From IMG/VR virus record IMGVR_UViG_3300045988_048750: a stretch of 57,148 nt of DNA; one strand, written 5' to 3'. The notes under the pieces are model-generated. The model searched no databases, was not told where the DNA came from, and saw only the letters and a list, made by a program, of their open reading frames with translations. Below, in pieces: positions 17,615 to 57,148 of this stretch; position 1 is the stretch's first letter; every line of letters begins with the position of its first letter. This DNA is from a virus. Position numbers and translations under genes: made by a program.

Positions 17615-17617
17615 AAG

Positions 17618-17904: not shown

Positions 17905-17919
17905 TTTTTGCGCAAAAAA

Positions 17920-18030: not shown

Positions 18031-18048
18031 AATACTCCTCTCATAGCA

Positions 18049-18089: not shown

Positions 18090-18090
18090 A

Positions 18091-18119
18091 AGAGCCCTTG
18101 TAAAACTTACGCAGGCTCT
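18091..18119. terminator. hairpin AGAGCC-N16-GGCTCT, related to the terminator family
   Basis: 6-bp GC-containing stem downstream of the stop of 18126..18362. Confidence 0.4.
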
Positions 18120-18125
18120 CTGTTG

Positions 18126-18362
18126 TTACTCAGCATCCTCAGAATTCTGCTTGTAATAATTACTCGAAGAAATATGAAGAATAGTACCGAGGAAGGTTAC
18201 CACGGCAGTAATAATACCAGCCACAACATCAGGATAAGGTAGACCAGGCAGCCCGCCCTGAACCAGAACGCCGCTAATTGCAATATACAGAGTAGCAATA
18301 GCAGGAAGAACAATAGTAGTAACATACTTAGCAACCTTATACGTCTTGTCGTCAAGAACCAT
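18126..18362 (-). CDS. holin-like small membrane protein (two TM, charged C-terminus)
   Basis: 78 aa; TM1 IVLPAIATLYIAISGV, TM2 VVAGIITAVVTFLGTIL, tail KQNSEDAE. Confidence 0.4.
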   Translation of the reverse strand: MVLDDKTYKVAKYVTTIVLPAIATLYIAISGVLVQGGLPGLPYPDVVAGIITAVVTFLGTILHISSSNYYKQNSEDAE

Positions 18363-20050: not shown

Positions 20051-20431
20051 TTACGAGGTAACGTCAGAATTACTCGTATTTTCAGCTTCGAGATTTAGTC
20101 GCCAGATGAGTTCTGCAAGGTTCTTATTCATAGCCTCGAGAACATATGAAGAAGTCGGAGGGTCGAACGCGATACGAGTCTTCTGTGACAAATATGTTGC
20201 CACCGCTCCTACGTTCTTAAACCCTCCGATGAAGTCTTCAAATGTCTGAGAGGAATCAGTAACCGTAAACCCATCAGACGGACCAATCCCATTTTGAGTG
20301 AGATCAAGGATGGCAGCGTTTAGAAAAACCAGAATATCCCGATCGAATGCATCGTAGTCCGAACCCAGACCACAAGTCTTCTTAACTGTATCCAAGATGC
20401 TTGCTGTTTTGTCAAACGGCATGATTATCAT
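20051..20431 (-). CDS. hypothetical protein
   Basis: 126-aa ORF. Confidence 0.5.
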   Translation of the reverse strand: MIIMPFDKTASILDTVKKTCGLGSDYDAFDRDILVFLNAAILDLTQNGIGPSDGFTVTDSSQTFEDFIGGFKNVGAVATYLSQKTRIAFDPPTSSYVLEAMNKNLAELIWRLNLEAENTSNSDVTS

Positions 20432-21230: not shown

Positions 21231-21956
21231 CTAAGAGATCTTCTTGTACTTAGTAGGATTTGAACCGTCACCCTTTGAGATGATAATAGTATCGTCTGAA
21301 GAATCTTGGTTCGATGGTTGCTCAGGTTTAGTTGTAGGCTGCTGGGGAGTCTGAGCAGGTTTCACTCCAGCATAGGCATTCCAGGCGTTTGCGTCTCCAT
21401 AGAAGAGATCCGCGTCAAGATTGCCATTATAGCCGTTTAGTCGACCGTCAGAGCAGAATTGCCACATGCAGACAAGTCCGTCTACATCGGGACAATCCCA
21501 CGATTCGGCCATTTTGAAAGTTGGGTGAGATACTGCTGGATATGAAGCGACCCATCGTCCGCATTCCTTATCCACGCCACCTTGATTGAATCGCCAAGGA
21601 TTTGCGTAGATAATCGGGGAGACTCCCCAGCGGCTACGGACAACTTTGACCCACTCGTTAACCCAGGCGACTGACTGTTTCTCTTCCCAGTCAAGAACAG
21701 GGATGGCGTCCCCCTTGTAGCCAATACAGTTATCGCAGAAGTAGTTCGCCTCTGCAGTAGCGTTACCGGCCTTAGCGTAATGGTATACACCTCGGAGGAT
21801 GCCTGCTTGCTTCGCCTGTTGGAAATGTGGATCACAGTAGGGATTTACGTAATTCGTACCCTCAGTACCCTTAATCACAACGAAATCAATCTGGCCTTTG
21901 ACCGTAGTAAGGTTCAGACCAGACTGATATGACGCGATATCAATACCGTGAAGCAT
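21231..21956 (-). CDS. endolysin, glycoside hydrolase family 25 (lysozyme/muramidase)
   Basis: MLHGIDIASYQSGLNLTTVKGQIDFVVIKGTEGTNYVNPYCD...ILRGVYHYA. Confidence 0.85.
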   Translation of the reverse strand: MLHGIDIASYQSGLNLTTVKGQIDFVVIKGTEGTNYVNPYCDPHFQQAKQAGILRGVYHYAKAGNATAEANYFCDNCIGYKGDAIPVLDWEEKQSVAWVNEWVKVVRSRWGVSPIIYANPWRFNQGGVDKECGRWVASYPAVSHPTFKMAESWDCPDVDGLVCMWQFCSDGRLNGYNGNLDADLFYGDANAWNAYAGVKPAQTPQQPTTKPEQPSNQDSSDDTIIISKGDGSNPTKYKKIS

Positions 21957-24096: not shown

Positions 24097-27000
24097 CTAA
24101 GCAATATAAACCAATTGCATCGATGTACCAGTATCTCGCCACTGATAATGACCCATTTGCACTCGAGAAGCTTTCACCGTGGAAGTAACGCCATCCAACT
24201 CCATGATTGTCTGATTGCCCTGCATGAACTTCTCGCTTGTATTAGTCAGCTTCGTACGGAACGAACTTGACGAACTACCAATTGTCAGAGTAGGTTGGTT
24301 ATTCTCTCTAGCGAATGTCATGTAGTCATCGACATTCTTAACAGTCGTAGACATACCCGAGACAGTTTTCTCAGTCGTCTGGATACGAGAAGTCAGAGAT
24401 GTGGATGTCTGCTCAAGCTGAGACTTAGTAGCATAGCTCGATAGCGTCTCGTTATTGATATACGTAGCGGCTACTGTAGAAGAAATCTGATCGGCACGTT
24501 GATTAATGGCCGAATAAGTTTCTTCTGACGTTAAATGACCAGCCATGAAAATGTTCTGAGACGTTCCGTCTGTTGGCTCAGCTGTTTGATTCAATCCCGA
24601 ATGTTCCCATTTACCAGATCCGCGGTCAACCATATATGAGCCGGTTCCGTAATACCACGGGCAATAGAACCATACATCACAAACGGTACTCGATTTTGCT
24701 CGAACTTGAACTTTAACATTGTCACAGTTCAACCCGAGGGTGACTGTTACGCCAAACGCCACAGAAGCACTAGGTGTTTGCTGAGATCCGTCCTTAATAA
24801 ATATCGAAAAATCGGAATTTTGATTCGCTGAGCCGTTATAGCCATTACCGGTGAATACTTGGATCGAGCAAGTCTGAGAGTCACCAGAAGAAGTCCATGT
24901 TCCGAGTTTAATCCATTTAGCTGAATTGTCTGGTTGGTTTCCTGAAAAAGTATATTTAACCGCAGTTTGATTCACAGTTGGATATTTCTGCATATCAGTT
25001 TTTGTCTGATACGTTTTCGATACTGCTGATGTAATCGAATCTGCAGTCTGCTTGATCTCTGATTGCATCTCGGTCGTAGTGGAATAATCTTCAGGGGCTG
25101 GTGACCAGTCTGTTACTTTATTGCCATATTCTAGTTTAGGAACGCCTATAAAGATTCGTCCTGTTCCAGACGTAATGCGAATCGTTAATGATCCTGTCAT
25201 AGGCGAGGTATACGTTGCTGTGAATTTTCTCCAAGTATTATCCGCCGGGGCTGTTATGTTTCCAATAATAAGGCCATTATCTTCAACGCCTACGTAAAAA
25301 GTTACTGGTGAAGAATCTTCATTTTTATACTTAAACTGTAAAGAATATTGAGTATTCTTTAGATGATACTTCTCCTGTCGAGAGTTATTACATACTCGAC
25401 CACGTCCAGTATTAGCGATCTCTAATACATATACGTTACCTTCTTTTAGACTATCAGTAGGAACAGCATTTATTTTACAATTCTCTTCAGTCGTCCACCC
25501 AGAAGTACCGTTTAGAAAATTTGAATTTAACAGCAAATTCCTACCACCAATACTAACATTGTTGATAGCACTCGTAACTTCAGTCTTAGTTGCTCTTAAA
25601 GCGATAGCCTCACTATTCTGTGTAATCTTTGTCTCGGCCTGGGTTACACGATTCTTAAGAGCATCAACAGCATCCTGAGCCTTCTTAGCATTAGCCTTAG
25701 CTGTATCGGCGGTACTCTGTGCAGCACTAGCAGCATTAGCAGCAGCGTTAGCCTTTGATTGAGCTGAAGCTGCATTCTGCTTAGCAGTGTTTGCGGTACT
25801 CTGTGCCGTATTAGCCAACTCTTTAGCTTTACTCGCAGCAGAGTTGGCACTGTCAGCAGCGGTCTGAGCAGAAGCTACAGCATTCTTAGCAGCTGTTAAC
25901 TCCTCATCAGTCACATCAGCCCTATTTTGAAGATCCTCAAGATTCTTCTGGGCATCACTCAGAGCAGCATTAGCTTTGTTAGCAGCAGCCTGAGCCGCAG
26001 CAGCATTAGCCTTGGCTGTCGAAGCCGCAGTAGCTGCACTAGTAGCGTGTTCTTGGGCCTCGTTGGCAGCAGTCTGAGCAGCTGTAGCCGTCTCATGAGC
26101 AGTGTTAGCCGCAGCAGCAGCATCATTAGCAGCCTTCTGAGCGTTATCAGCAGTAGTCTTTGCGGAAGAAGCATCCGTACGAACCTCTTCCACGCTACTT
26201 ACTGTCTGCTCAATACGATCGCTAAGCTGATTCACAGTAGACTTAGTGGCATAGGTTCTCTCAACTGTATTGGAGAGATTTTTTACAGCCGTATCATCAG
26301 TGTACTTACTGGCTTTGACCCAATCAGATTCAGCATATGTCTGACTGGCAATCTTGGGAGTCTGGCAACGCATGATATCGCCGTTGGAGCCCTGAACCCA
26401 TAAGTCACCAATGTCATAAGGCGGTTTCGGGGTAGTGACAAATATGCGCTTCTTAGCGTTCGCGGTAGTTTGAGCGTTAGCCGCATCAGCCAAAGCCTTA
26501 GTGACCTCGGTATCCTGAATCCTACCCCAAGAATAGACCCCATTTTGATTCATGTAGCGATAGCAGAATCCAGTATGCTTATCGTAGTAAAGGTCTCCGA
26601 GATGAGTCTGACGATCCTTATCGGTAGTCCAATTAACCTCAGGCTCTGTCAATGCATTAGGGATGCCATCGTAGAACCAAGTCTGAATGGCACCATCAAT
26701 CTGATCTTTAAGTCCAGAAATGTCCCCATCAAATTTGCTAACGGCGTTTGCCAAATCAGATGCATTTGACTCAGCTGCTTTCTTAGCCGCATCAGCAGTA
26801 GATTGAGCCGTTTGAGCTGCCTTAGTGGTAGTCTCGAGCTCTTTCTTTGTGCTATACGTCTGAGATACCTCAGTACGGAGTCCAGCAGCAGATTTAGAAA
26901 TCTCAGTTTTGAGATTACTCTCGGTGGCACTCAATTCAGACTTCTTTGTATAGTCCGCTTCCATAGTCTCTTTGACTGTGGTAATCTGACCAGTCAAATC

Positions 27001-28680
27001 GTCACGCAAAGTAGCCGCATCCTGCTTAACCGAGGTCATTTCTCTGTTGATGTCAGTAATCTGAGTCTTGACACTGCTGACATCCTTATTTGCCTGAGCA
27101 GCAGAGCTTAGAGCACTATCAGCAGTAGACTGAGCATTGCTAGCAGCTGTATTAGCGTTAGATGCAGCCTCATTAGCTTTCTCTGCTGAAGACTGAGCCG
27201 AATTGGCAGCAGTTGTCGCATCGTCAGCAGCCTTCTTAGCGGTGTCTGCCGCATTCTTAGCCTCAGTAGCCTTCTTTTCAACAAGGGTTACCTTAGCTTT
27301 AGTATCGTTTGAAGTAGACGAAGCATCTTCTGCTTTACTTACAGCTGAGTTAGCTATGTCTGTTACCTTGTCGGCTTTCTCAGCAGCGTCTGCAGCAGCA
27401 TCTGTCGCGGTATCCGCCTTATCTTTTGCTTCTTGAGCGAGCTTAGCTGAATTCTTAACATCAGTGCTTAGAGCATCGACTGTATCAAGACTTGTATTAA
27501 TTGAAGCATTAAGAGCTTTTAGATATGCACTCTGCTGGCCGGTAAGAGTATCATACGAAGCGCCTAAGTCAAAGGTAGTATTCTCAGGATTCATCAAATC
27601 GAGATCGATCGAATTGACCATGATGTACTCGTCTACCTTGCGGGGCTTAGAACGAACTCGTACCGCCTGACCGAGCTGAAGATGCTGGTACTTCTCGCCA
27701 AGAATAAGAGCAAGGTCTACGGCCCTGACTGAGATGGTGCGAGCAGGAGATAGCAGAGTATTAAGTGTCTTGCAGGCGTACTCAAGAAGACCGTCGTGAG
27801 TCTTGATATCGGTATTCGAGACATAGTACTCTCGATAACCGTAACGGGCGACAGCTTCTACATCATAAACCCTATCTCCCATTTTGACGATAGTCGAGGA
27901 GTATGGTGTGCCACCATCTGCGCAGCCTTCAAGAGTAATTGGCTTCATCTTAACATCAGTTTGACCCTCAGGAGGATCGGGCGTATACCCTGTTGCCACT
28001 ACTGCTGTATATTGAGTCTCCGCGGTAGTAGTCTTAGTAAAATCTAAAATATTGACACCGTAGTCAATAATCTGAGTATTGACATCATGGACGTCAGCGT
28101 AAAGATCAAGAATATTCAGATCATCCCGATAGCGTACGAACAGATAACCGCCAACAGAATTAAGAATCTTGTCCTCAATCTCTGAGGCAGTCGTTGGACG
28201 CTGTTCAGACGAACGATAGATATAATTGTTCTTATCAAGCATATTGCCCTGATTCACACCGACTGAGAAACGCTTGCGTGAGTCAAGACAATTAGAATTG
28301 TGCTGATTGATCAGCCATTGAAAATAACCATCAACTGTCGCCGGACAAGTTAGTGGTTGTTCTCCTTGCACAGTAGAGTACGGACGAACTCGAGTAGCAG
28401 TCAAGTAATCGAGAACGCCCGTACAAGAAACAGAGTAATTCCCCTCAAAGTCTTCATCTATTTTAGTAATCTCACCCTTGAATAGAATAAGATTGTTGAA
28501 ATAGATTCGAACTTCTCCTGCTCGCTCTTCAATTTTAGAATATAAAGAATGTGTAGAGGAGATAGTGAAATCGAAATATGAGGCGGCATTAAGCTTAGAA
28601 GAAAGCTTCGTATCGGTTATACGGTCATCCGTATAAGGATCGAAAAGAAGTTGATTATCATACAAAACCCTATAACCCAT
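24097..28680 (-). CDS. tail-associated lysin (Tal) / host-specificity fibre: an N-terminal prophage-tail-endopeptidase-like region, an Ala-rich coiled-coil repeat shaft, and a C-terminal binding region
   Basis: 1527 aa directly downstream of Dit; a long run of AKKAADDATTAANSAQSSAEKANEAASNAN-type repeats. Confidence 0.7.
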   Translation of the reverse strand: MGYRVLYDNQLLFDPYTDDRITDTKLSSKLNAASYFDFTISSTHSLYSKIEERAGEVRIYFNNLILFKGEITKIDEDFEGNYSVSCTGVLDYLTATRVRPYSTVQGEQPLTCPATVDGYFQWLINQHNSNCLDSRKRFSVGVNQGNMLDKNNYIYRSSEQRPTTASEIEDKILNSVGGYLFVRYRDDLNILDLYADVHDVNTQIIDYGVNILDFTKTTTAETQYTAVVATGYTPDPPEGQTDVKMKPITLEGCADGGTPYSSTIVKMGDRVYDVEAVARYGYREYYVSNTDIKTHDGLLEYACKTLNTLLSPARTISVRAVDLALILGEKYQHLQLGQAVRVRSKPRKVDEYIMVNSIDLDLMNPENTTFDLGASYDTLTGQQSAYLKALNASINTSLDTVDALSTDVKNSAKLAQEAKDKADTATDAAADAAEKADKVTDIANSAVSKAEDASSTSNDTKAKVTLVEKKATEAKNAADTAKKAADDATTAANSAQSSAEKANEAASNANTAASNAQSTADSALSSAAQANKDVSSVKTQITDINREMTSVKQDAATLRDDLTGQITTVKETMEADYTKKSELSATESNLKTEISKSAAGLRTEVSQTYSTKKELETTTKAAQTAQSTADAAKKAAESNASDLANAVSKFDGDISGLKDQIDGAIQTWFYDGIPNALTEPEVNWTTDKDRQTHLGDLYYDKHTGFCYRYMNQNGVYSWGRIQDTEVTKALADAANAQTTANAKKRIFVTTPKPPYDIGDLWVQGSNGDIMRCQTPKIASQTYAESDWVKASKYTDDTAVKNLSNTVERTYATKSTVNQLSDRIEQTVSSVEEVRTDASSAKTTADNAQKAANDAAAAANTAHETATAAQTAANEAQEHATSAATAASTAKANAAAAQAAANKANAALSDAQKNLEDLQNRADVTDEELTAAKNAVASAQTAADSANSAASKAKELANTAQSTANTAKQNAASAQSKANAAANAASAAQSTADTAKANAKKAQDAVDALKNRVTQAETKITQNSEAIALRATKTEVTSAINNVSIGGRNLLLNSNFLNGTSGWTTEENCKINAVPTDSLKEGNVYVLEIANTGRGRVCNNSRQEKYHLKNTQYSLQFKYKNEDSSPVTFYVGVEDNGLIIGNITAPADNTWRKFTATYTSPMTGSLTIRITSGTGRIFIGVPKLEYGNKVTDWSPAPEDYSTTTEMQSEIKQTADSITSAVSKTYQTKTDMQKYPTVNQTAVKYTFSGNQPDNSAKWIKLGTWTSSGDSQTCSIQVFTGNGYNGSANQNSDFSIFIKDGSQQTPSASVAFGVTVTLGLNCDNVKVQVRAKSSTVCDVWFYCPWYYGTGSYMVDRGSGKWEHSGLNQTAEPTDGTSQNIFMAGHLTSEETYSAINQRADQISSTVAATYINNETLSSYATKSQLEQTSTSLTSRIQTTEKTVSGMSTTVKNVDDYMTFARENNQPTLTIGSSSSSFRTKLTNTSEKFMQGNQTIMELDGVTSTVKASRVQMGHYQWRDTGTSMQLVYIA

Positions 28681-39744: not shown

Positions 39745-41754
39745 CTAGCGACCAGTAGTCTTCTGATCAGCGTCAGCCGGATCAGTCTTGGTTATGAAAT
39801 CAGAAGTACCCTCGAGAGAAGAATCAACATAATGCTCGACGACCATAGCAGAATAAGGAACCGTAAGAGCACCAGAGATACGAGTCTCGATCAGGTACTT
39901 CTCCTGATTGTAATCAATGTCGAAGTCATCGAACATAGACACAGCGCCACCCTTATCAGTACCAATGTTGTAGTCATTAAGATTGACAATAACAGCATCG
40001 ACAATAAGAGTCTTACCAGTGAGCGCCGTCTCCTTAGCAAGAGGCGTACGCTTGAGGTCTTTCATGACCTGAACGGGGACAATATCCGCAACGCAGAGCG
40101 CAGCACAAAGCTCCTGCTTGGACTTGTAAATTCGACGGCCGACCTTATCCTTCTGCATAAGCAGACGGTTGAGATTACGCTGAGTCGTGAACATCAGCGG
40201 ATTACCAGAACCCTCATAGTCCTCGAAGCCATAGACAACACGCTCCTCAAAATCAGCAGCAAAGGTGCTATTATCAGGCTCAGTCCTATAACCCTTGGTG
40301 ATCTTGATCGAGTAGAAAGGATCATCATTAAGAACCGAGCGGATGTGATCCTCGCTAATCTTGTCATCGCTACCGGACTCACGGCCATCGCCGATGACGA
40401 TAGCACGAGCAATCTCTTCCTCGAGCATCATACGCATTTCCTGACGAAGAACACTTACGATGTCCATCGTAGTAACATCAAGAATATCGTCACGATCGAG
40501 ACGCTGCTTCTTGTATACCGTCTGCGGGGTCGTGGTGCGCTTGAGCAGGGGGAACACTTCCTCCTTCTTCTTCGTACCCTTGATGTAGCCTCGAGCACGA
40601 GCCTCGTCCTCAGTAATATTAGCGAAGACGGACTTGACTCGGGTGAACGGAGTATGAGAAACCGCGTTCATGACACGAGAAACCCACTCGGTATTGCGCT
40701 TAACAAACTTAAGGTTGTTGCCGCCTACGGTCTGGAAATCGGGGAACAGATAGTCAATGTTGCCAATGCCGTAGTCAGTACCAGGCGTACCATTGTCGAG
40801 ATGCGCCAGGAACTCGTCACCAACAAGGTTGTCAATGTTAGCGCCATGCGCCAGGAACGACTTCTTAAGGGAACCATAACGGCTCATATCAGCAATAGCC
40901 TTCTCAAAATCGCAGTCCATACCGAGAGAATGCTCGAGAGTCTCGTCGTTCTCCTCAGTGTTATCAAAGATGTTATGCTTCATGTCAGAATTTCCCTTCT
41001 CGGAAGTATTGGACTCATTGTTAGAGCCGTTATCGATAAGATAATTAATCAAGCCCTGCATTACTTCACGCTGATGAGGGTTCATAGAGTTAAGAACGTC
41101 CTCAACCGTTTCATCTTCAGCAGGTTTCTTGTCAGAGTTGTCACCCGAATTGTCATCGGCATGCTCTACAGTCTCATCGGACTGAGAATCATCAACCTCA
41201 TCCGAATTACCCTCGTTATTCAGCATTTCTGCCATAAATTTCTCACTTTCATCAGAATGACCAAACCACACGGTATTATTGTCATTGTAAATCTGAGCCT
41301 CGTCATCCGATTCCATAGGTTCCCCATCGTCGGAATGAACCATCACAGAATCAATACATGCGCCAGGATTAGCACCAGCAAGAACAAGACTAACCTCTCG
41401 AATTTTGCCATGAACGACATCTTTGCGGCCATCTGCACGTTTATTCTGCTTGAGATTATTTGCAAAGATCGACAGTGCGGTAATATCCTTATGCTTTAGA
41501 AGCTTTTTAGCACGAGTACCTTCGTCAGTATCGTTTACGTAGCCAAAGCAATACATTCCTTCCGGACGATTGTTAAGCAGTGCATGACCTACGACATTCT
41601 TCATCTCACTGTGCTGATGATTCCAAACCAAAGGAACAATTTTTCCATCATCTGCGGCCAAGGCGTTCTGCTTAATCGTTCGACCATCAGAGCATGGAAC
41701 TTCATACTTACTAGCCCAACCACAAAAATCATAATTTTCATCCATGTTGATCAT
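39745..41754 (-). CDS. fusion of an HK97-family prohead protease and an HK97-fold major capsid protein
   Basis: N-terminal NALAADDGKIVPLVWNHQH...HGKIREVSLVLAGANPGA; acidic linker; C-terminal capsid-like domain of about 400 aa. Confidence 0.7.
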   Translation of the reverse strand: MINMDENYDFCGWASKYEVPCSDGRTIKQNALAADDGKIVPLVWNHQHSEMKNVVGHALLNNRPEGMYCFGYVNDTDEGTRAKKLLKHKDITALSIFANNLKQNKRADGRKDVVHGKIREVSLVLAGANPGACIDSVMVHSDDGEPMESDDEAQIYNDNNTVWFGHSDESEKFMAEMLNNEGNSDEVDDSQSDETVEHADDNSGDNSDKKPAEDETVEDVLNSMNPHQREVMQGLINYLIDNGSNNESNTSEKGNSDMKHNIFDNTEENDETLEHSLGMDCDFEKAIADMSRYGSLKKSFLAHGANIDNLVGDEFLAHLDNGTPGTDYGIGNIDYLFPDFQTVGGNNLKFVKRNTEWVSRVMNAVSHTPFTRVKSVFANITEDEARARGYIKGTKKKEEVFPLLKRTTTPQTVYKKQRLDRDDILDVTTMDIVSVLRQEMRMMLEEEIARAIVIGDGRESGSDDKISEDHIRSVLNDDPFYSIKITKGYRTEPDNSTFAADFEERVVYGFEDYEGSGNPLMFTTQRNLNRLLMQKDKVGRRIYKSKQELCAALCVADIVPVQVMKDLKRTPLAKETALTGKTLIVDAVIVNLNDYNIGTDKGGAVSMFDDFDIDYNQEKYLIETRISGALTVPYSAMVVEHYVDSSLEGTSDFITKTDPADADQKTTGR

Positions 41755-41832: not shown

Positions 41833-43089
41833 CTATTCATCCTGAGTCTCTTCCTCGGTTTGATCGTCATAACCTTCTTGATCGTTTGCAGGAGCGCTGA
41901 GGTTTGCGTTTCGCAACTCATCAGCCTTTGGATCAGAAGAAGGCGTCATACCAATAGCCTGTCGAATCTCATTACTAGTAGCAATTTCATTTCGAGTAAA
42001 CTTATCAGCAATTTCAGCGATATCGCTGACCGGCATGAGCTTAAACGGATCTCGGAAATACTTAATGTCTTGACCTTGAGTCCTTGCAGTAGGCGTAATA
42101 AACACCCTGGACATGTTTTCGGTCAAAGCAGACAATACAGGCTCAATAACTCGACTATTATAGTTGGTCATGACCTTCTCATCTGCCGTACCGTTCATAA
42201 TCTCAGGTGTAACTCCGAGTTGGCCATAGGCAAGATTCGTCAAATACTCTACCTGTTTGAGTAGGTTATTTTCTACTGATCGATTCAGCTGAGTAATGTG
42301 CTCTGTGGCGTCAACATACGCAATTCCGTATTTTGATCCAGCAAGCTGATCCTCGATCGCCTTTCGGCGTTCCTCTGCTTGATTCTTCCGAGCTTCGGAT
42401 TTAATCGTATACGGAAGCTGAATGATAAGATCCAATTTTCCCGAACTGGTTTGCTCGTCAACGACATCGAGAAGGTTCAATTTCCTGTTCAAGCGAGTCA
42501 TCAATGAATCGTTTTTATTCATAATCGTATAAAATGGATTTTGAATAATAGCCGCTTGAGTCTTTGGAACAATTACTTCTTTTCGTCGCCCGCTACGGTC
42601 GTCATATAGACTTACCTTTACATGTTGAGGAAAGAATTCAACAGGAATTCCAACACGCAAAGAATAAATGTTATAACTTCCGTTATCCGGATCTGTTTCA
42701 GTCTCAATTGGAACAATTGCAATGCAGCCCTCATCAAATAGTGTTAGTACTGCATCCTGAATCATTTCTCGACCGGTTTGATCAATGTTCGCTTCGGTAC
42801 TAAGACATGCGTTAAGACTATCCTCGATCGTTTCAAGATAACGATGATCCGGATCTGTTCGAACATGCCGAATATCAACTGACGCAACATCCATCGCGAT
42901 ACGATTGTAGATAGAATTTACAATCGACCGATCTCCGCCACGATAGTGATAACTGTACATCTGTTGACCAGTATATACAATCGCAGGAGATGGAGAGCCG
43001 TAATCTTCAGTAGGAGCGTTATCTTTTAACTCTTGACCTCTAAAAATATTCCAGGCGTTTTTCAGCCTAGATCGTAAAGGTTCCGGCAT
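41833..43089 (-). CDS. portal protein
   Basis: 418 aa between TerL and the protease-capsid gene; acidic C-terminus. Confidence 0.65.
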   Translation of the reverse strand: MPEPLRSRLKNAWNIFRGQELKDNAPTEDYGSPSPAIVYTGQQMYSYHYRGGDRSIVNSIYNRIAMDVASVDIRHVRTDPDHRYLETIEDSLNACLSTEANIDQTGREMIQDAVLTLFDEGCIAIVPIETETDPDNGSYNIYSLRVGIPVEFFPQHVKVSLYDDRSGRRKEVIVPKTQAAIIQNPFYTIMNKNDSLMTRLNRKLNLLDVVDEQTSSGKLDLIIQLPYTIKSEARKNQAEERRKAIEDQLAGSKYGIAYVDATEHITQLNRSVENNLLKQVEYLTNLAYGQLGVTPEIMNGTADEKVMTNYNSRVIEPVLSALTENMSRVFITPTARTQGQDIKYFRDPFKLMPVSDIAEIADKFTRNEIATSNEIRQAIGMTPSSDPKADELRNANLSAPANDQEGYDDQTEEETQDE

Positions 43090-43098: not shown

Positions 43099-43617
43099 TT
43101 ACGATTTTGACTGAACTTTAGCACGTTTATCGCCGTACGCTCGCTTCTCTTTTGCATAATAAGATCCACCAGACGCATAATTGCTAAGAGCCGCAACAGT
43201 AAGACCAGCAATTGGAGCGGCAAGAGGTGCAGAACCAGCAATCAAAGCTGTAGTGCCGACTCCCATCACTGCTGAAAACGATTTCAACTTGATGTTACGG
43301 GCATTCGCAATGCGATAGCGACCGTTTTTAATCTGTTCACCAGTGAGTGTAGCTTCTTTTCGAGCAAGTTCGATCTCTTGATTACGATAGGTATTAAACG
43401 AATGAGTACGCTGCTGTCGATAATATGTACGAGCAGCTGACTTTTCAGCCTTTGTCGTAGGCTTCTTTGTCGAATAACCCTTCTTTAGTTTATTTCGCTT
43501 TTCATTCTCAGCTTTTCGCTTATCAGAATGCGCTTTAACTGAAGATGAAACTTTCTTAGTAATAACACCCCAGTGCATGCCTTTAACACCATGGTGTTGG
43601 ATGACTTCATACTCCAT
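43099..43617 (-). CDS. basic protein, paralog of 45369..45947 (N-terminal HHGVKGMHWGVITKK motif); function unknown
   Basis: MEYEVIQHHGVKGMHWGVITKK vs EEVVVHHGVKGQRWGVITKE; start overlaps the TerL stop (TAATG). Confidence 0.55.
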   Translation of the reverse strand: MEYEVIQHHGVKGMHWGVITKKVSSSVKAHSDKRKAENEKRNKLKKGYSTKKPTTKAEKSAARTYYRQQRTHSFNTYRNQEIELARKEATLTGEQIKNGRYRIANARNIKLKSFSAVMGVGTTALIAGSAPLAAPIAGLTVAALSNYASGGSYYAKEKRAYGDKRAKVQSKS

Positions 43618-45359
43618 TATTCGAATGCCTCCTTGTTTAATTTATAAGCAACATATGCATCCATCATAGCAGCAACAGCATCGATCTTATCTTCTCTGCG
43701 ATATTTGAAAAGTTTTCGATTTCCATTGTTGTCTACTAAAGTGATACAATTTCCCATAGTGAACTTCATAAGTTGCTCGTCAAACAAAAGCATTCTTTCT
43801 TGAGCGAGTTTCTTTAGTTCTCCTAATGGCACAGATTCCGTTTTAGAACCCTGAATAACTTTCTCAATACCAAACGGTCCATTTTCTTGTTCCCAACGAT
43901 TCACAAACGCTTTCGCATTATATGGATCATATCCAAAGCATCGAACATCATATTCGGTATCTATGATAAACTGATCCAAATCGTCATAAACTTCGTCCAT
44001 ATCGAGAACAGTTCCCTCCATAATAATAAGAGAACCCTCTTTTATGAAGTCATTATATTTTTCCCTAATAGCCAGAGGCAGACGATTTAGAGTAAGCGAA
44101 GTAATATAATTCCTCGTTTTAACGCCGAAACGTTCTCCGCTCAATGGGAATAAGAAAGTGAAAGCACAGAAGTCGTCGCCTTGAGACAAGTCAGCGCCCA
44201 AAGCACATGGCATCTGCCAGAAATTCTGACGACGATGAACCTTAGTTTCCTCGTAGGTAAAGTAATATGTATAGCCTTCCATCGGAATGCCAAAACGCTT
44301 CGCCAAAATATCGTTGCGTGTTGCAGGAGCTTTCTCAGCACGTTCAACGTCCAATTGATAAGTCTCATAGGTAACAGTCTTACCGATATTCGGATTTGCC
44401 TTTACCCACTTTGTAGGATCAGCGACTTCATCAACAGTATCCAAACGATACCAGAAAATAGACACATGAGGGTTTGAATATTCACCCTTTAGAATGTCCA
44501 TTAACTCCATTTTGATTGTATCGCCGCTGCCATTACGTACAGTACCCTCTGAGGATGTAGCGATAATCAGATAATTATCGAGCTTAGAGGCACCCTGCTC
44601 AATGGCGCCGATAACATCTTCTCGAATGTCACCAGACAACCATTCGTCTACAGTAGCATACTTGCATCGAAGACCCTGCAACTTTGCAATTGACATAGGG
44701 CGAACTTCAATCAGCGAACCAGTAAGAAAATTTTCAATACCCTTTTTTGTTGATGCTAATTTTGCTCGGTTTGCTTTAGAACCAGTCGTATTCTGCAATG
44801 ATCCAAGTGTAAGAAACTTAAACAATGGACCTTTTGAACGAGTAATAGCCGTTCGAATAGGGGACATTACCTCATCGGCCTGTCGCATCGTAGGTGCTGT
44901 AGTAATCTGATGCGTTGTACTTGTATCCATGTTCAGAAAATATGTCTGAATGCAAGAATCGTATAACGATTTAGAAGCGCCTCGTCCAACGATGAGATAC
45001 TGTTTATTAATCAAACGTTTCTTGACCATTTTGGTCTTATGAATCAATGTTCCGTTCGGTTGAACCTCTGGAATACTGCGCTCTACATAGTAATACCAAC
45101 CAAAGACTTGCTCTCCCCACAGCTTAAAACTATCGAGAAGCTTCAAGTCTCCACCGTCGGTAAGAGTCATTTCATTTTCGCAGAAACGAATCCAGCCTTC
45201 AACAGCCTTATCATCGTAATAAACGCCGGGGTTGGAAATAAGCCAATCAATGCGATTCATTTCCATTGAAATTTCTTCGTTAACAGGAATTTCTCCACGA
45301 AGAACTGCATCTCGAAATTGGCCGTAATAAATAGGTACTGCTGTATTAGAAAGACTCAT
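43617..45359 (-). CDS. terL: terminase large subunit
   Basis: Walker A-like LIVGRGASKS, Walker B CKYATVDEW, nuclease motif LGADLSQGDDFCAF, C-terminal KIDAVAAMMDAYVAY. Confidence 0.85.
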   Translation of the reverse strand: MSLSNTAVPIYYGQFRDAVLRGEIPVNEEISMEMNRIDWLISNPGVYYDDKAVEGWIRFCENEMTLTDGGDLKLLDSFKLWGEQVFGWYYYVERSIPEVQPNGTLIHKTKMVKKRLINKQYLIVGRGASKSLYDSCIQTYFLNMDTSTTHQITTAPTMRQADEVMSPIRTAITRSKGPLFKFLTLGSLQNTTGSKANRAKLASTKKGIENFLTGSLIEVRPMSIAKLQGLRCKYATVDEWLSGDIREDVIGAIEQGASKLDNYLIIATSSEGTVRNGSGDTIKMELMDILKGEYSNPHVSIFWYRLDTVDEVADPTKWVKANPNIGKTVTYETYQLDVERAEKAPATRNDILAKRFGIPMEGYTYYFTYEETKVHRRQNFWQMPCALGADLSQGDDFCAFTFLFPLSGERFGVKTRNYITSLTLNRLPLAIREKYNDFIKEGSLIIMEGTVLDMDEVYDDLDQFIIDTEYDVRCFGYDPYNAKAFVNRWEQENGPFGIEKVIQGSKTESVPLGELKKLAQERMLLFDEQLMKFTMGNCITLVDNNGNRKLFKYRREDKIDAVAAMMDAYVAYKLNKEAFE

Positions 45360-45368
45360 ACGCGGCTC

Positions 45369-45947
45369 CTATTTTTTCTCCTGTTCCGAAGAAAGACTAG
45401 CAAGAATCTCGGATGTACGCTTAAGATTAGTATAGGCGTTGTTAATTGTGTTCGCGGCTTCGCTAATGTCTTTGACATACTTCATAGTCTTGTTAATGGT
45501 CTCCATATTCTTCTCAAAAGAAGATTTTTCTCGAGAAGAAGCAGCAAGTTCAGAAACTCTTTTCTCAAGCATTAAGCGTGAATAAGCCTGTTGAAGTTCA
45601 TTATCATTAAACAAATCAGCATTCTTCGACAACATCTTAGCTGATTTTGATTCCAAAACCATCTTCTTACGCTGATCAGTAGAAAGAGTCTGCCAAGTAT
45701 CATCGGTAGTAGTCTGCTTATTTGACTTCAACTTCTTCGACAACTTCGCTTGACGTTTTGCGAGCTTAGCATTTCGACGCTTAGCCAATCTCGCTTGAAC
45801 ACGCTGCTGAATCTTTGAACCCTTTTTATTTTGATCAGCCTTAGCTGAATGAGTACCTTTAGGAACGTATTCCTTAGTAATTACACCCCAGCGTTGACCC
45901 TTTACTCCATGATGAACGACTACCTCTTCATTCATCTGTGAACTCAC
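45369..45947 (-). CDS. basic coiled-coil protein with an N-terminal HHGVKGQRWGV motif (paralog of 43099..43617); possibly a terminase small subunit
   Basis: position immediately upstream of terL; lysine/arginine-rich. Confidence 0.5.
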   Translation of the reverse strand: MSSQMNEEVVVHHGVKGQRWGVITKEYVPKGTHSAKADQNKKGSKIQQRVQARLAKRRNAKLAKRQAKLSKKLKSNKQTTTDDTWQTLSTDQRKKMVLESKSAKMLSKNADLFNDNELQQAYSRLMLEKRVSELAASSREKSSFEKNMETINKTMKYVKDISEAANTINNAYTNLKRTSEILASLSSEQEKK

Positions 45948-45970: not shown

Positions 45971-46390
45971 TTAAGATCTCCAAGGGCATGTGTCGTTAGG
46001 TTTTCTTTCTACCAAGTCATGAATTAATTTTGTAGAATCGCCGTAATGTATTGCGTTATGCGTTCTACGAGTACAGCAAATAAGATTGTTCATGTCAAAA
46101 AGACAAGGATCTCTGTTTAAGACGTTCTCTTTTGTTATCGGATTAAGATGATGAATGTAAATCGGTTCTCCAGTAATTTCTCTATCGAAAATTCCCAAGT
46201 CACATCCAGAATCTCTGATGATAACTCGATTTCTGACAGATCGCCATTCAGTATCGTGATACAATACCTGATTCAAATATCGACTAGAACCAAAAGTATC
46301 GATTCCAACAGAAGAATTGACTCTCAGATACTCAAAGCGTTCCTCAAAAGTCTTAAGCTGTGAAAGCTCCAAATATGTTCTACAACTCAT
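45971..46390 (-). CDS. HNH endonuclease
   Basis: IYIHHLNPI...NNLICCTRRTHNAIH. Confidence 0.7.
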   Translation of the reverse strand: MSCRTYLELSQLKTFEERFEYLRVNSSVGIDTFGSSRYLNQVLYHDTEWRSVRNRVIIRDSGCDLGIFDREITGEPIYIHHLNPITKENVLNRDPCLFDMNNLICCTRRTHNAIHYGDSTKLIHDLVERKPNDTCPWRS

Positions 46391-46704
46391 ACTGTTCCGC
46401 CATAAGATTTCATAGCTTCGACAGCTTCCTTCATGAGTTGCTCGACATGAGTCGCCGATTCCAGAGACTGTGTCTTTGCCTTGAGTAGTTCATTCTCGTG
46501 AACCAACTTTTCTCGCTCAAGTTCCGCTCGTTCAGTACCAAGTTTCAAAAAATGAACGATAACAGCCGAAGATGCAGTGCCATCACGCAACTGTGATTCA
46601 GCACAGTCCATAGCAAGAGATATCATTTGATTCTCTTTACCTTCTGGAGTAAGAGGTGGCATACTTCTTATAGACTTGTCGTCAGTCTTATTACGTTTAC
46701 CCAT
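46387..46704 (-). CDS. hypothetical protein (possible terminase small subunit or late regulator)
   Basis: AAAGGAGGAG RBS; 105 aa, helical. Confidence 0.4.
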   Translation of the reverse strand: MGKRNKTDDKSIRSMPPLTPEGKENQMISLAMDCAESQLRDGTASSAVIVHFLKLGTERAELEREKLVHENELLKAKTQSLESATHVEQLMKEAVEAMKSYGGTV

Positions 46705-46844
46705 AAATATCTCCTCCTTTACCCGACTTCATCTTCATTTTGAATTAGTTTATGTAGTGTTTTTAGGACCTATCCTGACTTGGTACCCTGCGTGAAAGGA
46801 GAAAAAAGCGCAATCGCAAAGATAGGTCCGAAGAACACTGCATA

Positions 46845-46880
46845 AAAATTAAGGATAGAGGGGGCTTGAGCGACCCCTCC
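46845..46880 (-). terminator. rho-independent terminator after the dCTP deaminase gene
   Basis: GAGGGG-N10-CCCCTC stem, followed on the minus strand by TATCCTTAATTTTTATG. Confidence 0.6.
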
Positions 46881-46886
46881 GAAACA

Positions 46887-47459
46887 TTAACCACGAGCAG
46901 TGGTCGGTCCTTTTTGGCCCTGATAATGAGAATTGAGAGACGGATCTCCATAAGGATGAGCACAATAAGAATCAAGTCCGAAGAAACAGATCTGCCCGAT
47001 TCGCATACCATACTTGATGTCAATCGGATAACGATTCTCGTTCTTCATCTCAAGAGTAATCTGACCCTCGAATCCTGCATCAATAAATCCAGCAGTAACA
47101 TGAGTAGTCAGACCGATTCGACCAAGAGAAGACTTGCCTTCAAATCGTCCAGCAATATCATTCGGAAGCTTTACCGTTTCCTTGGTAGAAGCAATAATGA
47201 AATCACCAGGGCACATACGATAGCAGTTGTCCCGATCTTCCGTAAGATCAATCTCGACATACTCTAGTCCATGAAGTTTCTTATCATAAGCTGTAATATG
47301 ACTCTCAACAGGGTATTCGTCAATGTTGCTAACTACCATCTTCTTAATAATCTTATCAAGAGTTAGATCGTAGCTACACGGTTGCTGTTGCTCAGAGTGA
47401 TACGGAGTAATAAGATCGGCCCTAGCGGACCTTACAGCAATAGTAACGTCAGAAAGCAA
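46887..47459 (-). CDS. dcd: dCTP deaminase (dUTPase superfamily)
   Basis: KSSLGRIGLTTHVTAGFIDAGFEGQITLEMKN. Confidence 0.75.
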   Translation of the reverse strand: MLSDVTIAVRSARADLITPYHSEQQQPCSYDLTLDKIIKKMVVSNIDEYPVESHITAYDKKLHGLEYVEIDLTEDRDNCYRMCPGDFIIASTKETVKLPNDIAGRFEGKSSLGRIGLTTHVTAGFIDAGFEGQITLEMKNENRYPIDIKYGMRIGQICFFGLDSYCAHPYGDPSLNSHYQGQKGPTTARG

Positions 47460-47493
47460 GACGTTCTCCTTTACAATCCAAAATCGAAAATAT

Positions 47494-47517
47494 AAAAATC
47501 CCTCCGGAGCTTTTTTT
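47494..47517. terminator. bidirectional terminator hairpin: ctccggag palindrome flanked by A5 and T7
   Basis: aaaaatccctccggagcttttttt. Confidence 0.6.
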
Positions 47518-47614
47518 AGGGGCCCGGCGATAAAGGAGGGGGGTATATTTTGAGACCCCCCCCTATACCTTTATATTTATGTTATATTCGTCTGATATTA
47601 TGTTTTATTTAACA

Positions 47615-47845
47615 TTAATGTTTGACTTTAACATAAATATTTTGGAAATCATATTTAATGATCTCATCAATTGCACGTTCGATCTCTTTTTCGTTTTCTT
47701 CATCACTAAGCGAAGAAGAAGTAAAGCAAACTCGATCTAAGAACGAACAAGTGTTGTAATGTTTGTCTGTATCAAACCTAAACCACTCATCAAACTGATC
47801 TATTGGATCGAAAGGATTGTCTTTAGTTGTGATTGCAACAGACAT
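47615..47845 (-). CDS. hypothetical small protein
   Basis: 76-aa ORF abutting the RNAP-like gene. Confidence 0.5.
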   Translation of the reverse strand: MSVAITTKDNPFDPIDQFDEWFRFDTDKHYNTCSFLDRVCFTSSSLSDEENEKEIERAIDEIIKYDFQNIYVKVKH

Positions 47846-50656
47846 TTAGTTACTTCCTTTCTTTCCATTTAAGTATTGATAGACAGTTGAAGGTGAGCAG
47901 CCTAAAGCATTGGCTATCTCTTGGTTAGTGTACATACCAGATGCAGCCATAGACTTAAGCTTTGTGATCTTAGCCTGTGTCAATGTAACTGTAGACTTAG
48001 GCATAGCCTTAGCTCTAATAGAATCAGGATCAGAGTAACGCAATACTTTCTGCAACTGAGTACTTGAAATAGCACCAGCCTGGATGGCTTCCCATTCCCT
48101 ATCAGTAAGCTTGATACGTACCTTCTTACCAGAGGCGCCTACTTGTGCACGAGCGGCCTCTATAGCAAGCTGCTTTGTCTTCTTGTACAGCTTCTTATCT
48201 TCAATTAGGGCCGGGTTATCGGCTACTTTAGCCTTAACTACGGAGTTAGCCAGGGCCATAGCCCTACGCTCCTTAGGGGCGTTCATATCGGCAGCCTTAA
48301 TCTTTTCATTTAGGGCTGTTACTTCTGCAGCATAGGTAGACTGGGCCTGCTTGTTTAGCTTTGAATTGTCAGTAGCCAAGTATTCTTTTCGAGCTTCGTT
48401 AGCAAGGGCCTTCATTTTGTTACCATAGGAGGCATAAGCTTCCTCTTGTGGGGTACCGGATGAAAGTGTATGAAGATCTTTAGTCGCAAGCAATAGCTTC
48501 TGCTCTTGAGTAGCGAGAACTGTTTTGCCAGTCTTCTTATCTACATAGGTACGCCCCGACAGTTTGTACTCTACCTCTCCGGTATCGGGGTTAATCTTAC
48601 CGGATCCACGGGTCTCTGGAACACGAATGGTCTGGTTACGCCTAGACAATAGGGTGGATGCACCAGTACTTTCATTACCATTCTCATTAGTATGGAGCTG
48701 ATACTTCTTCTTAAGCTCAGCAATACCATTATCTTTCTCAGACTGCTTGTAGTCTAGCTTGTGCTTCTCTGCATCAATGACTACCATGGAGTGTCGAACA
48801 GCACGTTCAAGTTCTTCTGGCTTTGCTCCGGCTAGGGTCATGTCAGTAATAAGATTCGAAACAATACCCATTTGCTTCTGCTTATACTCTTTTGACATGA
48901 TCTTAACAGGAACACCAGCAGAATTAACCCTAACAGTCTTACCATTAACTACTTTCTCATCAGTAGAATAGGCAGTCTTAGGATCAAAGCCAACAAGTCC
49001 CTTCAAAGGCTTCTGATTTTTGATCTTAACACGACTGTTAGTAGGAATAACTACAACCTGATCACCATCAAAGTCAGCACCAGACAGCTGTTCTGCGACT
49101 TTAGGGTTAATACCAATAGCATCTACAGCATTAGGGTCAAGAATAGCTCGACATTTACGACTACGGTTGTTAACAGTTAGGATTGGGATCTCAAATGTGC
49201 CACCATGAGGATAGCGAACTAGTGCTACCTGCTCTCCATCCTTATAGGTAGGAGCATACACTTCAGTATCCTTGAGATGAGTCATAGGAAGAATAACTTT
49301 GGTGCTCTCACGAGGCAATGCAGCAGCCTTAAGATGTGTTGCAGCAGAATCACATTCATTAGCAAAGTCCATAAGAAACTTTTTCTTGACTGTATCATTA
49401 GTCAAGCTCTTAATCTCTTGGTATTCTGAAAGAGAACTATCATAGCTGAGGTTCAACTGTTTCTTAATCAGAGACATAGGCTGCTTAGACAAGAACTGTG
49501 AAGACAGATTCTTGCTCATATCATCCCAATCGCCCTCTTCTTTAAGCTTGTTGATTGCGCTAAGCTTAGACTTACCAGATTTATCAGTGTAATATGACTG
49601 ACCATCAGCCTTGATGGCTGCACCAAAAGGATTATCCGGGTCTTCGGTATGAATAGGTTTCAATACCTTGTTCTTAGGAACATCATGAGTCTTGTTAGTG
49701 TTAAACACAATGTCATAGCCATCCGGAATATCATCCGAATACATTGCCATACCCTTAAGATAATGAGTTCCATCAACAAGAATACGAACCTGTGCATAGT
49801 GAGAGTTACCAAGACTCAGATCATCTACGCCACGACGAATCTCAATGACGCCATCTTTTTCAACGCCTTTGGATCCAAAAAGATCTTCATCACCATAATG
49901 AATCTTAACACGAGAGCTATCAATAGATGAAGGATACTGAGTCTTGTTAAAGGTTAAGCCACCATCAGTAGAATGGTAATTTCCTACTGAATCGATATCG
50001 CCCATGTTTTGATAGGCATCCTTGTATTCGACGTCCTTATTAGCAAGAACTGATACAATAGTTTGCTTGCCAGGATTAGTGACATTAGGAACACCAACAC
50101 CATAAACATTGTAGCCACGAGTACGAAGAATAAACAAAGCTTCTTTAAGAGTGCCCTGAGACACTCCCAACTCGTGTTCAACGCCAGCGCCGACATCAAG
50201 CATAGAATGCGATTTAAGGGCCTCTTCTAGCTTGTCAGCAGTGACACTAGCCCTATTCTTATTCGTGGCCGTATTCTCGTTTAGAAGGGCTCTAACGGAC
50301 GAATCATTGGCATATCCCATGATACTTGCGATCTCATCAAGGGTTTTACCCTGATGTCGAAGAGATTTCGCTCGTTCAGCATCCATCTGACGACGTTCAT
50401 GAACAGCAACACGCTTCTGCAAACGAAGATCAGTGGTTGTCATACCAAGAGCTTCAGCAATCTCTTTCTCAGTGCCATACTTCTTAGAAAGTTCGTCTAC
50501 ACGAGAAAGGAAGTCGCCGCCACTTTGAAAAGGATTCTCTCCAGAACCCCAAGGATATCGACCAGAATGTCGCTTAGTTCCATAATGAGTAAGCTCTTCT
50601 TCAATTTCATCAATCTCATCGATAACCATAAATTCAGTGTAGTCCTCAAGTTCCAT
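47846..50656 (-). CDS. putative single-subunit, YonO-like 'two-barrel' RNA polymerase: beta-like and beta-prime-like double-psi beta-barrel motifs, plus N- and C-terminal HTH domains
   Basis: beta-prime-like: VALVRYPHGGTFEIPILTVNNRSRKCRAI...SGADFDGDQVVVIP (cf. NRQPSLH...NADFDGDQMAVH). beta-like: GSKGVEKDGVIEI...DDIPDGYDIVFNTNKTHDVPKNK (cf. RHGNKGV...DMPF.DG.P.DI.LNP..PSR). HTHs: TEKEIAEALGMTTTDL, KTLDEIASIMGYANDSSVRALL, NQEIANALGCSPSTVYQYL. Confidence 0.6.
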   Translation of the reverse strand: MELEDYTEFMVIDEIDEIEEELTHYGTKRHSGRYPWGSGENPFQSGGDFLSRVDELSKKYGTEKEIAEALGMTTTDLRLQKRVAVHERRQMDAERAKSLRHQGKTLDEIASIMGYANDSSVRALLNENTATNKNRASVTADKLEEALKSHSMLDVGAGVEHELGVSQGTLKEALFILRTRGYNVYGVGVPNVTNPGKQTIVSVLANKDVEYKDAYQNMGDIDSVGNYHSTDGGLTFNKTQYPSSIDSSRVKIHYGDEDLFGSKGVEKDGVIEIRRGVDDLSLGNSHYAQVRILVDGTHYLKGMAMYSDDIPDGYDIVFNTNKTHDVPKNKVLKPIHTEDPDNPFGAAIKADGQSYYTDKSGKSKLSAINKLKEEGDWDDMSKNLSSQFLSKQPMSLIKKQLNLSYDSSLSEYQEIKSLTNDTVKKKFLMDFANECDSAATHLKAAALPRESTKVILPMTHLKDTEVYAPTYKDGEQVALVRYPHGGTFEIPILTVNNRSRKCRAILDPNAVDAIGINPKVAEQLSGADFDGDQVVVIPTNSRVKIKNQKPLKGLVGFDPKTAYSTDEKVVNGKTVRVNSAGVPVKIMSKEYKQKQMGIVSNLITDMTLAGAKPEELERAVRHSMVVIDAEKHKLDYKQSEKDNGIAELKKKYQLHTNENGNESTGASTLLSRRNQTIRVPETRGSGKINPDTGEVEYKLSGRTYVDKKTGKTVLATQEQKLLLATKDLHTLSSGTPQEEAYASYGNKMKALANEARKEYLATDNSKLNKQAQSTYAAEVTALNEKIKAADMNAPKERRAMALANSVVKAKVADNPALIEDKKLYKKTKQLAIEAARAQVGASGKKVRIKLTDREWEAIQAGAISSTQLQKVLRYSDPDSIRAKAMPKSTVTLTQAKITKLKSMAASGMYTNQEIANALGCSPSTVYQYLNGKKGSN

Positions 50657-57093: not shown

Positions 57094-57148
57094 GACAAAG
57101 CGCAGCAACAGACAGCACAACCACAGTCCAGTACCAATAAGGAAATCA
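57094..57148. repeat. second copy of the 55-bp terminal duplication
   Basis: identical to positions 1-55. Confidence 0.9.

Follow-up and report, generated by a model that had tools for sequence, protein, structure and literature searches.

DUF7211 (PF23847), a Pfam family of 25 positions, is a very abundant, lineage-specific modular tag, and it was found at the N-termini of two otherwise unrelated proteins encoded in the viral DNA record IMGVR_UViG_3300045988_048750 of IMG/VR (57,148 nucleotides; this whole stretch is called the window below). The genes of these proteins, A and B, lie on the minus strand on either side of the gene of the large terminase (TerL), as the first-pass annotation had described. 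The tag comprises about 20 residues of the form acidic-x-[LIV]-x-H-[HYF]-G-[VI]-K-G-x-x-W-G-V-(R/I)-(R/T)-K. It is tentatively explained, at somewhat less than an even chance, as a disordered address tag which is coupled to prohead-protease sites and would load cargo into the procapsid for delivery together with the DNA. The genes and tags concerned are listed here, with E-values of the tags from a custom hidden Markov model (HMM).

43099..43617, minus strand: protein A, 172 aa, sole gene of the slot between TerL and portal
43555..43608, minus strand: DUF7211 tag of protein A, residues 4-21, EVIQHHGVKGMHWGVITK (E 4.5e-12)
43617..45359, minus strand: TerL, 580 aa (TerL_nuclease 6e-34; phrog_9 1.8e-108)
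45369..45935, minus strand: protein B, 188 aa, in the slot between HNH endonuclease and TerL
45873..45926, minus strand: DUF7211 tag of protein B, residues 4-21, EVVVHHGVKGQRWGVITK (E 4.7e-11)
47846..50656, minus strand: RNA polymerase (RNAP)-like protein, 936 aa, homologue of the YonO/QDE-1-like single-chain RNA polymerases, with GADFDGDQ and a C-terminal helix-turn-helix (HTH) domain (phrog_4291, E 0)
50540..50608, minus strand: tag variant at the N-terminus of the RNAP-like protein, residues 17-39, EIEEELTHYGTKRHSGRYPWGSG

Two unrelated basic proteins with a common tag

The sequence H-H-G-V-K-G-x-x-W-G occupies residues 8-17 of both A and B. When the whole window was scanned in six frames with a regular expression, the pattern was detected in these two proteins only, apart from a longer form that spans residues 24-37 of the polymerase. 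Against DUF7211, protein A scored 27.5 bits over its full length and 31.4 bits with its N-terminal 40 amino acids, which is above the gathering cutoff of 27 bits. Protein B scored 18.7-21.9 bits and thus under the cutoff, with all invariant residues kept, while copies in related phages reached 35-56 bits.

A and B had been annotated as clear paralogues. In a pairwise BLASTP comparison, 15 of 22 residues were identical (E 3e-9), but the alignment was confined to the first 22 residues and nothing aligned past them. Only seven of the 15 identical residues share the same codon, so the motif has been kept at the protein level and does not go back to a recent duplication. Recent duplication or gene conversion was rejected, as the synonymous sites have diverged. 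The tag is all that A and B share; they are otherwise unrelated proteins, both small and basic. The open reading frame (ORF) given for protein B at 45369..45947 was retained, but its start was revised: the GTG at 45947 is probably not used, and the ATG at 45935 is the most likely start because of an upstream AAGGGG ribosome-binding site and homologues of 185-190 aa.

Both proteins are very basic with an isoelectric point (pI) of about 10 (10.3 for A). In protein A, a basic helical core follows the tag, and the C-terminal part (residues ~114-152) is a hydrophobic segment rich in Gly and Ala, with a Kyte-Doolittle 19-residue mean of 1.67; 29 homologues were found. Protein B continues after its tag with a long basic helix and then a small domain, also helical, that contains DLF..EL...Y.R; matches were obtained to phrog_24711, 32444, 16943 and 7021. 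No catalytic domain was detected in either protein in Pfam or PHROG scans. AlphaFold models were of low overall confidence, with a predicted local distance difference test score (pLDDT) of 61 for A and 72 for B. The helical cores scored 82-94 and the motif region below 52. The motif region is therefore predicted to be disordered, which suits a docking tag better than a folded domain. A Foldseek search of both models against BFVD returned nothing at E<=0.001. With full-length A or B as query, tblastn gave four weak matches or none, since only the short tag is shared.

A and B could be aligned over about 100 residues to phrog_14126, the family of gp07 of phage 1706, or to the related phrog_7021 and phrog_24711. 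A second motif, S..EL.....R[LM].LE.Q[FY], is apparently common to B, 1706 gp07, Circum gp7 and ReqiPoco6 gp015; it was not confirmed by hhalign against single sequences and is weakly supported by the shared PHROG profiles.

The Pfam entry of DUF7211 gives no function, and neither the family nor the motif strings were found in the literature searched. Papers on Arthrobacter and Gordonia phages and on polyvalent proteins (including PMC5512222) do not mention the motif. The lineage restriction of DUF7211, its repeat architecture, its cargo and its link to the polymerase are new here. A link to WXG proteins and type VII secretion was considered and dropped, as the motif has W-G and not W-x-G and nothing else supported it.

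Distribution in one phage lineage

The gene layout of the window is that of a lineage which includes Lactococcus phage 1706, Faecalibacterium phage FP_oengus, Rhodococcus phages ReqiPoco6 and Pepy6 and phages of Arthrobacter, Gordonia and Streptomyces. This lineage was described previously, and its large protein, which has a DxDGD loop and HTH domains, was assigned there to the YonO/QDE-1-like polymerases (bioRxiv 10.1101/842583). The motif is conserved in these homologous phages. With two consensus tags as tblastn queries, 230 and 235 of 50,697 phage records were matched, compared to 250 for the polymerase homologue. The genus counts of the tag matches mirror those of the polymerase: Arthrobacter 95 (86 by one tag query), Gordonia 55, Streptomyces 54, Curtobacterium 7, Microbacterium 4, Faecalibacterium 2 and Caudovirus 2. 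Much of the polymerase excess is made up of twelve ‘Siphovirus’ records which matched the polymerase only; those examined were partial contigs without the head module. The hosts belong to the Actinobacteria and Firmicutes only. The motif is thereby shown to be a hallmark of this one lineage, which also contains many gut phages.

Single genomes carry one to nine DUF7211 copies, for example Qui with nine, ReqiPoco6 with seven, ClubPenguin and Untouchable with four each, Circum and the saliva phage D_HF5_2C with three each and 1706 with two, both of which are in gp07. Wherever several genes of one genome carry the tag, it always stands on otherwise different proteins. Across the lineage, dozens of proteins with no other relationship begin with it, and the motif is all that at least 14 PHROG families have in common.

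Copies from the same genome have a common flavour, e.g. WGVITK in the window, GMHWG in ClubPenguin, WGK[HR]K in Qui and QHFG in D_HF5_2C. Identity at the variable positions of the tag was 62.5% within genomes and 37.7% between them (permutation p<0.0005). Such a shared flavour fits co-adaptation to one genome-specific partner.

Polyproteins and cargo domains

The tagged genes mostly fill two variable slots, one between HNH and TerL and the other between TerL and portal. In actinophages, the former also carries endolysin, holin and connector genes. D_HF5_2C has adjacent terminase and portal genes, and its tagged genes lie among the tail genes.

A profile search of 1.84 billion cluster representatives resulted in 39,310 protein clusters that match the motif at E<=1e-3. 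The best matches are proteins of 300-1569 aa with two to five copies at distances of about 150-300 residues, and among the 150 best, the first copy is usually found at residues 5-26. Three polyproteins were traced to their locus, and all three are encoded between TerL and portal, i.e. in the slot of protein A. The content of this slot ranges accordingly from the 172 aa of protein A to polyproteins of 1038, 1335 and 1569 aa.

Pfam domains were searched in 52 long members. GNAT was present in six of them, a papain-fold glutamine deamidase in four and a 2H phosphoesterase in three. Fusions of 2H phosphoesterase and DUF7211 are also encoded as ReqiPoco6 gp015 and ClubPenguin gp5. GNAT and 2H-phosphoesterase domains are among those known from polyvalent proteins, of which the phage-encoded ones were predicted to be packaged in the capsid (Iyer et al. 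2017, PMC5512222). A DUF5662-DUF7211-Ntox50 protein is encoded on one related gut phage contig (positions 1-3600). There, it stands in a row with RtcB and a Tad3-family protein, and the three genes resemble a small island of counter-defence functions, a tagged toxin among them.

Tag variant of the polymerase

The motif had been reported to be shared with the N-terminus of the RNAP-like protein, and this could be maintained in part. DUF7211 gave no match to the polymerase N-terminus at E<=10; the first half of the tag was recovered by profile-profile comparison. Residues 22-42 of the polymerase read ...LTHYGTKRHSGRYPWGSGENP. In all 250 homologues obtained by tblastn, the alignment begins at residue 22, which is where the tag variant lies, and the conserved region opens with (D/E)n-[FY/L]-L-x-H-Y-G-[TIV]-x-[RK]-x-S-G-R-Y-P-W-G-S-G. 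A metagenomic form of the polymerase, LMHYGVKRRSGRYPWG, is intermediate between the tag and the polymerase variant.

When an HMM built from DUF7211 copies only was run on 2126 ORFs, polymerase N-termini ranked directly below the true copies. With hhalign, the motif profile matched the alignment of polymerase N-termini with a probability of 94% (P 1.3e-7) and the full-length polymerase alignment at residues 17-28 (P 1.5e-4). The controls TerL, portal and HNH gave P values of 0.18, 0.25 and 0.09. P was 0.07 for the capsid fusion and 0.004 for the N-terminus of the protein encoded after the portal (DDF[LI]xHY). The polymerase thus shares the first half of the tag, and W-G comes after an insertion of three residues. 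Judged by these profiles, its N-terminus is best called a divergent DUF7211 variant and not a member of the family. The protein has the catalytic GADFDGDQ and, besides phrog_4291, matches Pfam RdRP with 6e-4 (below cutoff), which places it among the YonO/QDE-1-like polymerases. A solved homologue was not found by sequence.

The protein encoded after the portal in actinophages is a coiled-coil protein that starts with half a tag (DDFIAHYA/EDFLEHYS) followed by YDPxKAxEYYxRTxELKGR. Its gene is present in Circum (gp11, 7441-8052), Qui (gp27, 17559-18338) and one further relative (16598-17248) and absent from the window. It is possibly a scaffold-like protein that uses the same docking element.

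Elements in the protease-capsid linker

Elements similar to the start of the tag occur in the fusion of prohead protease and major capsid protein, which is encoded downstream of the portal gene.

41833..43089, minus strand: portal protein, 418 aa
39745..41754, minus strand: prohead protease (S78)-major capsid protein fusion, 669 aa (phrog_3270, 3e-192)
40750..41385, minus strand: acidic linker of the fusion, residues 124-335, with repeated Φ-x-H-[SAGD]-[DE]

In the window, the linker contains MVHSD, FGHSD and VEHAD as well as DEFLAHLD, which the acidic-L-x-H start of the tag resembles. In the window and its homologues, five or six islands of Φ-x-H-[SAG]-[DE] are conserved in position within an otherwise unconserved acidic linker. 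Eight protease-capsid linkers contained 27 Φ-x-H-[SAGD]-[DE] elements, whereas 1.6 were expected. Of 241 regions just upstream of internal tag copies, 79 contained the same element where 4.8 would be expected; the downstream control regions contained none. From this pattern, the elements are probably sites at which the prohead protease (S78) cleaves during maturation. The two-copy protein gp07 of 1706 is labelled ‘structural protein’ in NC_010576.

Proposed function and alternatives

According to the proposed explanation, the motif would be an intrinsically disordered address tag that docks on a lineage-specific procapsid component, either the interior of the protease-capsid fusion or the portal. 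Through this docking the tagged proteins would become enclosed in the procapsid. Φ-x-H-[SAGD]-[DE] sites nearby would allow the prohead protease to trim them or cut them apart, and they would enter the host together with the DNA. Docking is suggested by the low pLDDT of the motif and the genome-specific flavours, and the procapsid as destination by the label of gp07, the cargo domains of polyvalent type and the elements in the linker. A and B would represent minimal cargo in the form of basic head-internal or ejection proteins associated with DNA, and a role at the membrane during entry is conceivable for the hydrophobic tail of A. Loading of the polymerase by the same route is a more speculative possibility.

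Several points weigh against this explanation. From its co-occurrence with the lineage, no core protein can be singled out as the receptor of the tag. A minority of DUF7211 genes lies outside the head module in the replication or early region. Only the GenBank label of 1706 gp07 and labels derived from it suggest that tagged proteins are present in the virion. The protease sites are something we infer, and to our knowledge no cleavage site is known for the prohead protease of this lineage. Concerning the polymerase, its 1706 counterpart (orf75) has no structural annotation, and the window has σA-type early promoters, with which a virion polymerase is not obviously needed. Finally, many tagged proteins have predicted transmembrane segments and are encoded near lysis genes in actinophages, which also fits a membrane role in the infected cell.

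An extended form of the proposal is rather unlikely. DUF7211 would then be the unrecognised capsid-loading signal of abundant Gram-positive siphophages, by which they load a changeable arsenal of effectors as well as their own YonO/QDE-1-like RNA polymerase. This arsenal would comprise basic DNA-associated proteins, membrane-active proteins, GNATs, 2H phosphoesterases and deamidase and RNase toxins, co-injected with the transcriptase and the genome.

The mirrored genus counts, the tag variant on the polymerase and the genome-specific flavours, which imply a common partner, would also agree with a tag that binds the phage RNA polymerase or the polymerase’s own N-terminal copy, in which case the tagged proteins would be accessory factors of transcription. 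This is improbable. Every other core gene of the lineage co-occurs in the same manner, and the polymerase variant was not seen to covary with the flavour of the tag. Arrays of seven to nine genes, polyproteins of 1500 aa, fusions to toxins, GNAT and 2H domains and transmembrane segments are unlike transcription factors, and 1706 gp07 is annotated as structural. The polyproteins and the toxin and enzyme fusions are explained less well by an RNAP-associated factor than by a virion-cargo tag.

A small chance is given to tagged proteins being late membrane-associated factors in the infected cell, for instance in lysis control, superinfection exclusion or as an assembly platform, with the tag recruiting them to each other or to a component of the Gram-positive host envelope. 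Protein A with its Gly/Ala-rich segment would suit such a role, as would a transmembrane-like stretch in ReqiPoco6 gp020 and the slot genes gp17-19, gp22 and gp24 of Qui, which are labelled ‘membrane protein’. The endolysin and holin in the actinophage slot between HNH and TerL and the restriction to hosts from Actinobacteria and Firmicutes point in the same direction. However, a hydrophobic segment is missing from protein B, from the polymerase and from the fusions to enzymes and toxins, and the motif itself is polar and basic. The structural annotation of gp07 also speaks against a membrane role, which would furthermore leave the connection to the motifs of the protease-capsid linker unexplained.

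Another reading, with a slim chance, takes the motif as a mere boundary element between modules, i.e. a protease cleavage or recombination junction without docking. Polymorphic toxins carry VENN and DPxGL junctions, which offer an analogy. The motif does start every polyprotein module, and Φ-x-H-[SAGD]-[DE] is enriched just upstream of the internal copies. Most copies, however, are located 5-26 residues from a free N-terminus, where there is nothing to separate. Invariant H, G, G, W and G over 20 residues exceed the needs of a cleavage site. The amino acids are conserved across genomes of 40-65% GC while the codons have diverged, which argues against a purely recombinational role.

It is very unlikely that A, B or both are the small terminase (TerS) or a cofactor of TerL or portal, with the tag as a peptide docking on TerL. 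Both genes flank terL, both proteins are strongly basic, and no TerS was recognisable in the window with Pfam or PHROG. TerL shares 76-78% of its residues with the large terminases of Streptomyces, Rhodococcus and Gordonia phages, and the polymerase only 44-52% with its own homologues; such conservation across phyla is unusually strong for a terminase. The bodies of A and B are nevertheless not conserved across the lineage as expected of a TerS, and neither protein has a TerS match in these databases. One of the genes had been placed in a small-terminase position, but in relatives this slot holds endolysin, holin, connector and variable DUF7211 genes. Slots vary from one to nine genes with enzymes included, and the D_HF5_2C arrangement separates tagged genes from the terminase altogether. 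The conserved gp04-like phrog_4259 protein beside HNH (46387..46704) is a better candidate for the small terminase than A or B.

The idea that A and B are split fragments of the double-psi beta-barrel that complement the polymerase is effectively refuted: apart from a superficial H-G-x-K-G likeness to the beta-subunit motif RHGNKGV, no RNA polymerase family of Pfam and no PDB sequence was matched at E<=10, the motif region is predicted unstructured without strands and followed by basic helices, the polymerase homologue is complete in one chain and has a DFDGD loop itself, and the motif occurs up to nine times per genome. Taken together, the first-pass annotation was partly confirmed. Its observation is real but overstated, with the polymerase link partly right and paralogy, small terminase and barrel wrong.

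Gene order and neighbouring elements

Bases 1-55 of the window are identical to bases 57094-57148, and the window is thus a circularly assembled complete phage genome with 57,093 unique bp. All of its genes are on the minus strand. The region at 43-48 kb gave no match to phage records with megablast. The remaining genes around the packaging module are as follows.

Upstream of the RNAP-like protein, minus strand: helicase, VRR-Nuc endonuclease and Cas4/RecB exonuclease
47615..47845, minus strand: 76-aa protein
46887..47459, minus strand: dCTP deaminase
46387..46704, minus strand: conserved 105-aa protein, phrog_4259, homologue of 1706 gp04
45971..46390, minus strand: HNH endonuclease, 139 aa, conserved partner of the packaging module (phrog_4321, 2.4e-56)

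In relatives, the genome ends (cos) are flanked by the gp04-like gene and the small gene that follows the polymerase; in the window, the dCTP deaminase gene is inserted at this position. Of the intergenic regions considered (46705-46886 and 47460-47614), the upstream one contains a G8...C6 inverted repeat, GGTATAGGGGGGGGTCTCAAAATATACCCCCCTCC. The head-tail connector or ‘virion structural protein’ (homologue of 1706 gp06, phrog_4247), which is encoded between HNH and TerL in relatives, has its homologue in the window at 20051..20431 (minus strand), about 25 kb away, where it adjoins an endolysin gene (21231..21956, minus strand), so protein B is alone in the slot between HNH and TerL. An ORF of 1527 aa (24097..28680, minus strand) has extensive internal repeats with periods of 21 and 63 nt (families D1-D4), which suggests a repetitive fibre-like tail protein.

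A conserved element of about 60 nt is present in six minus-strand copies at 7370, 9126, 16651, 17585, 54428 and 55733. Its sequence is CGCATATTTTGCAAaC-CTTTAATGAAGG-a-TACAAT, and a GAAAGGA ribosome-binding site follows at a distance of about 10-15 nt. The element can be read as a σA-type promoter (-35 TTGCAA, 17 nt, -10 TACAAT). Its spacer and the flank upstream are unusually well conserved, which may point to a regulator site or to recognition by the HTH-bearing phage polymerase. The early regions with these promoter-like repeats also contain four copies of a 49-nt repeat, AAAGAGAAGAGCC...CTCAACTCTTT (17288, 17609, 17911 and 55442), which can be read as a putative terminator-like hairpin.

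Known systems and significance

The capsid-targeting sequence (CTS) of phage T4 is a short N-terminal peptide that is common to the unrelated proteins IPI-III and Alt and directs them into the prohead. The prohead protease cuts it off at a site also found in scaffold and capsid proteins, and the cargo includes enzymes injected with the DNA. This appears to be the closest analogy to the DUF7211 tag, which is likewise a short N-terminal peptide on otherwise unrelated proteins. There is no sequence similarity between the two, and T4 uses L/I-x-E sites and a separate scaffold core. The tag of the lineage is longer than the CTS, has invariant H, G, G, W and G and recurs inside polyproteins; its encapsidation and cleavage are proposals here.

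MuF-anchored polymorphic toxins of phages were reportedly described by Jamet et al. in 2017. Like these and the polyvalent proteins, tagged proteins are multidomain proteins encoded beside the portal, with GNAT and 2H domains in common (PMC5512222) and toxin domains by analogy. Some relatives have the architecture of polyvalent effectors with GNAT, glutamine deamidase, 2H phosphoesterase or Ntox50, which A and B do not have. The tagged proteins differ in that they are without MuF, metallopeptidase or any other known anchoring domain and in that their constant element is a linear motif of 20 residues at the start of each module.

The polymerase of crAss-like phages is also YonO/QDE-1-like (bioRxiv 10.1101/842583). 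The lineage resembles the N4-like and crAss-like phages in encoding a non-canonical polymerase, which would be packaged as well if its N-terminal variant were a loading tag. It differs from them in its Gram-positive hosts, its siphovirus type and the HTH domains of its polymerase. A and B are similar to TerS as small basic proteins encoded next to terL and dissimilar in having no match to a TerS family, in their lack of conservation across the lineage and in their variable slot.

If the proposed explanation is true, virion-delivered effectors could be found by a simple sequence rule in tens of thousands of phage genomes from gut and soil, with candidate anti-defence enzymes and toxins among them, and the tag would serve as a portable peptide for packing foreign proteins into capsids. 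It would further suggest that the unusual single-chain RNA polymerase of the lineage enters the host with the DNA, as happens in N4 and crAss-like phages, and the view of the infection programme would change accordingly. Whatever the mechanism, a 20-residue motif that is present in 39,310 protein clusters and has no literature is a well-defined problem which can be approached in cultured phages.

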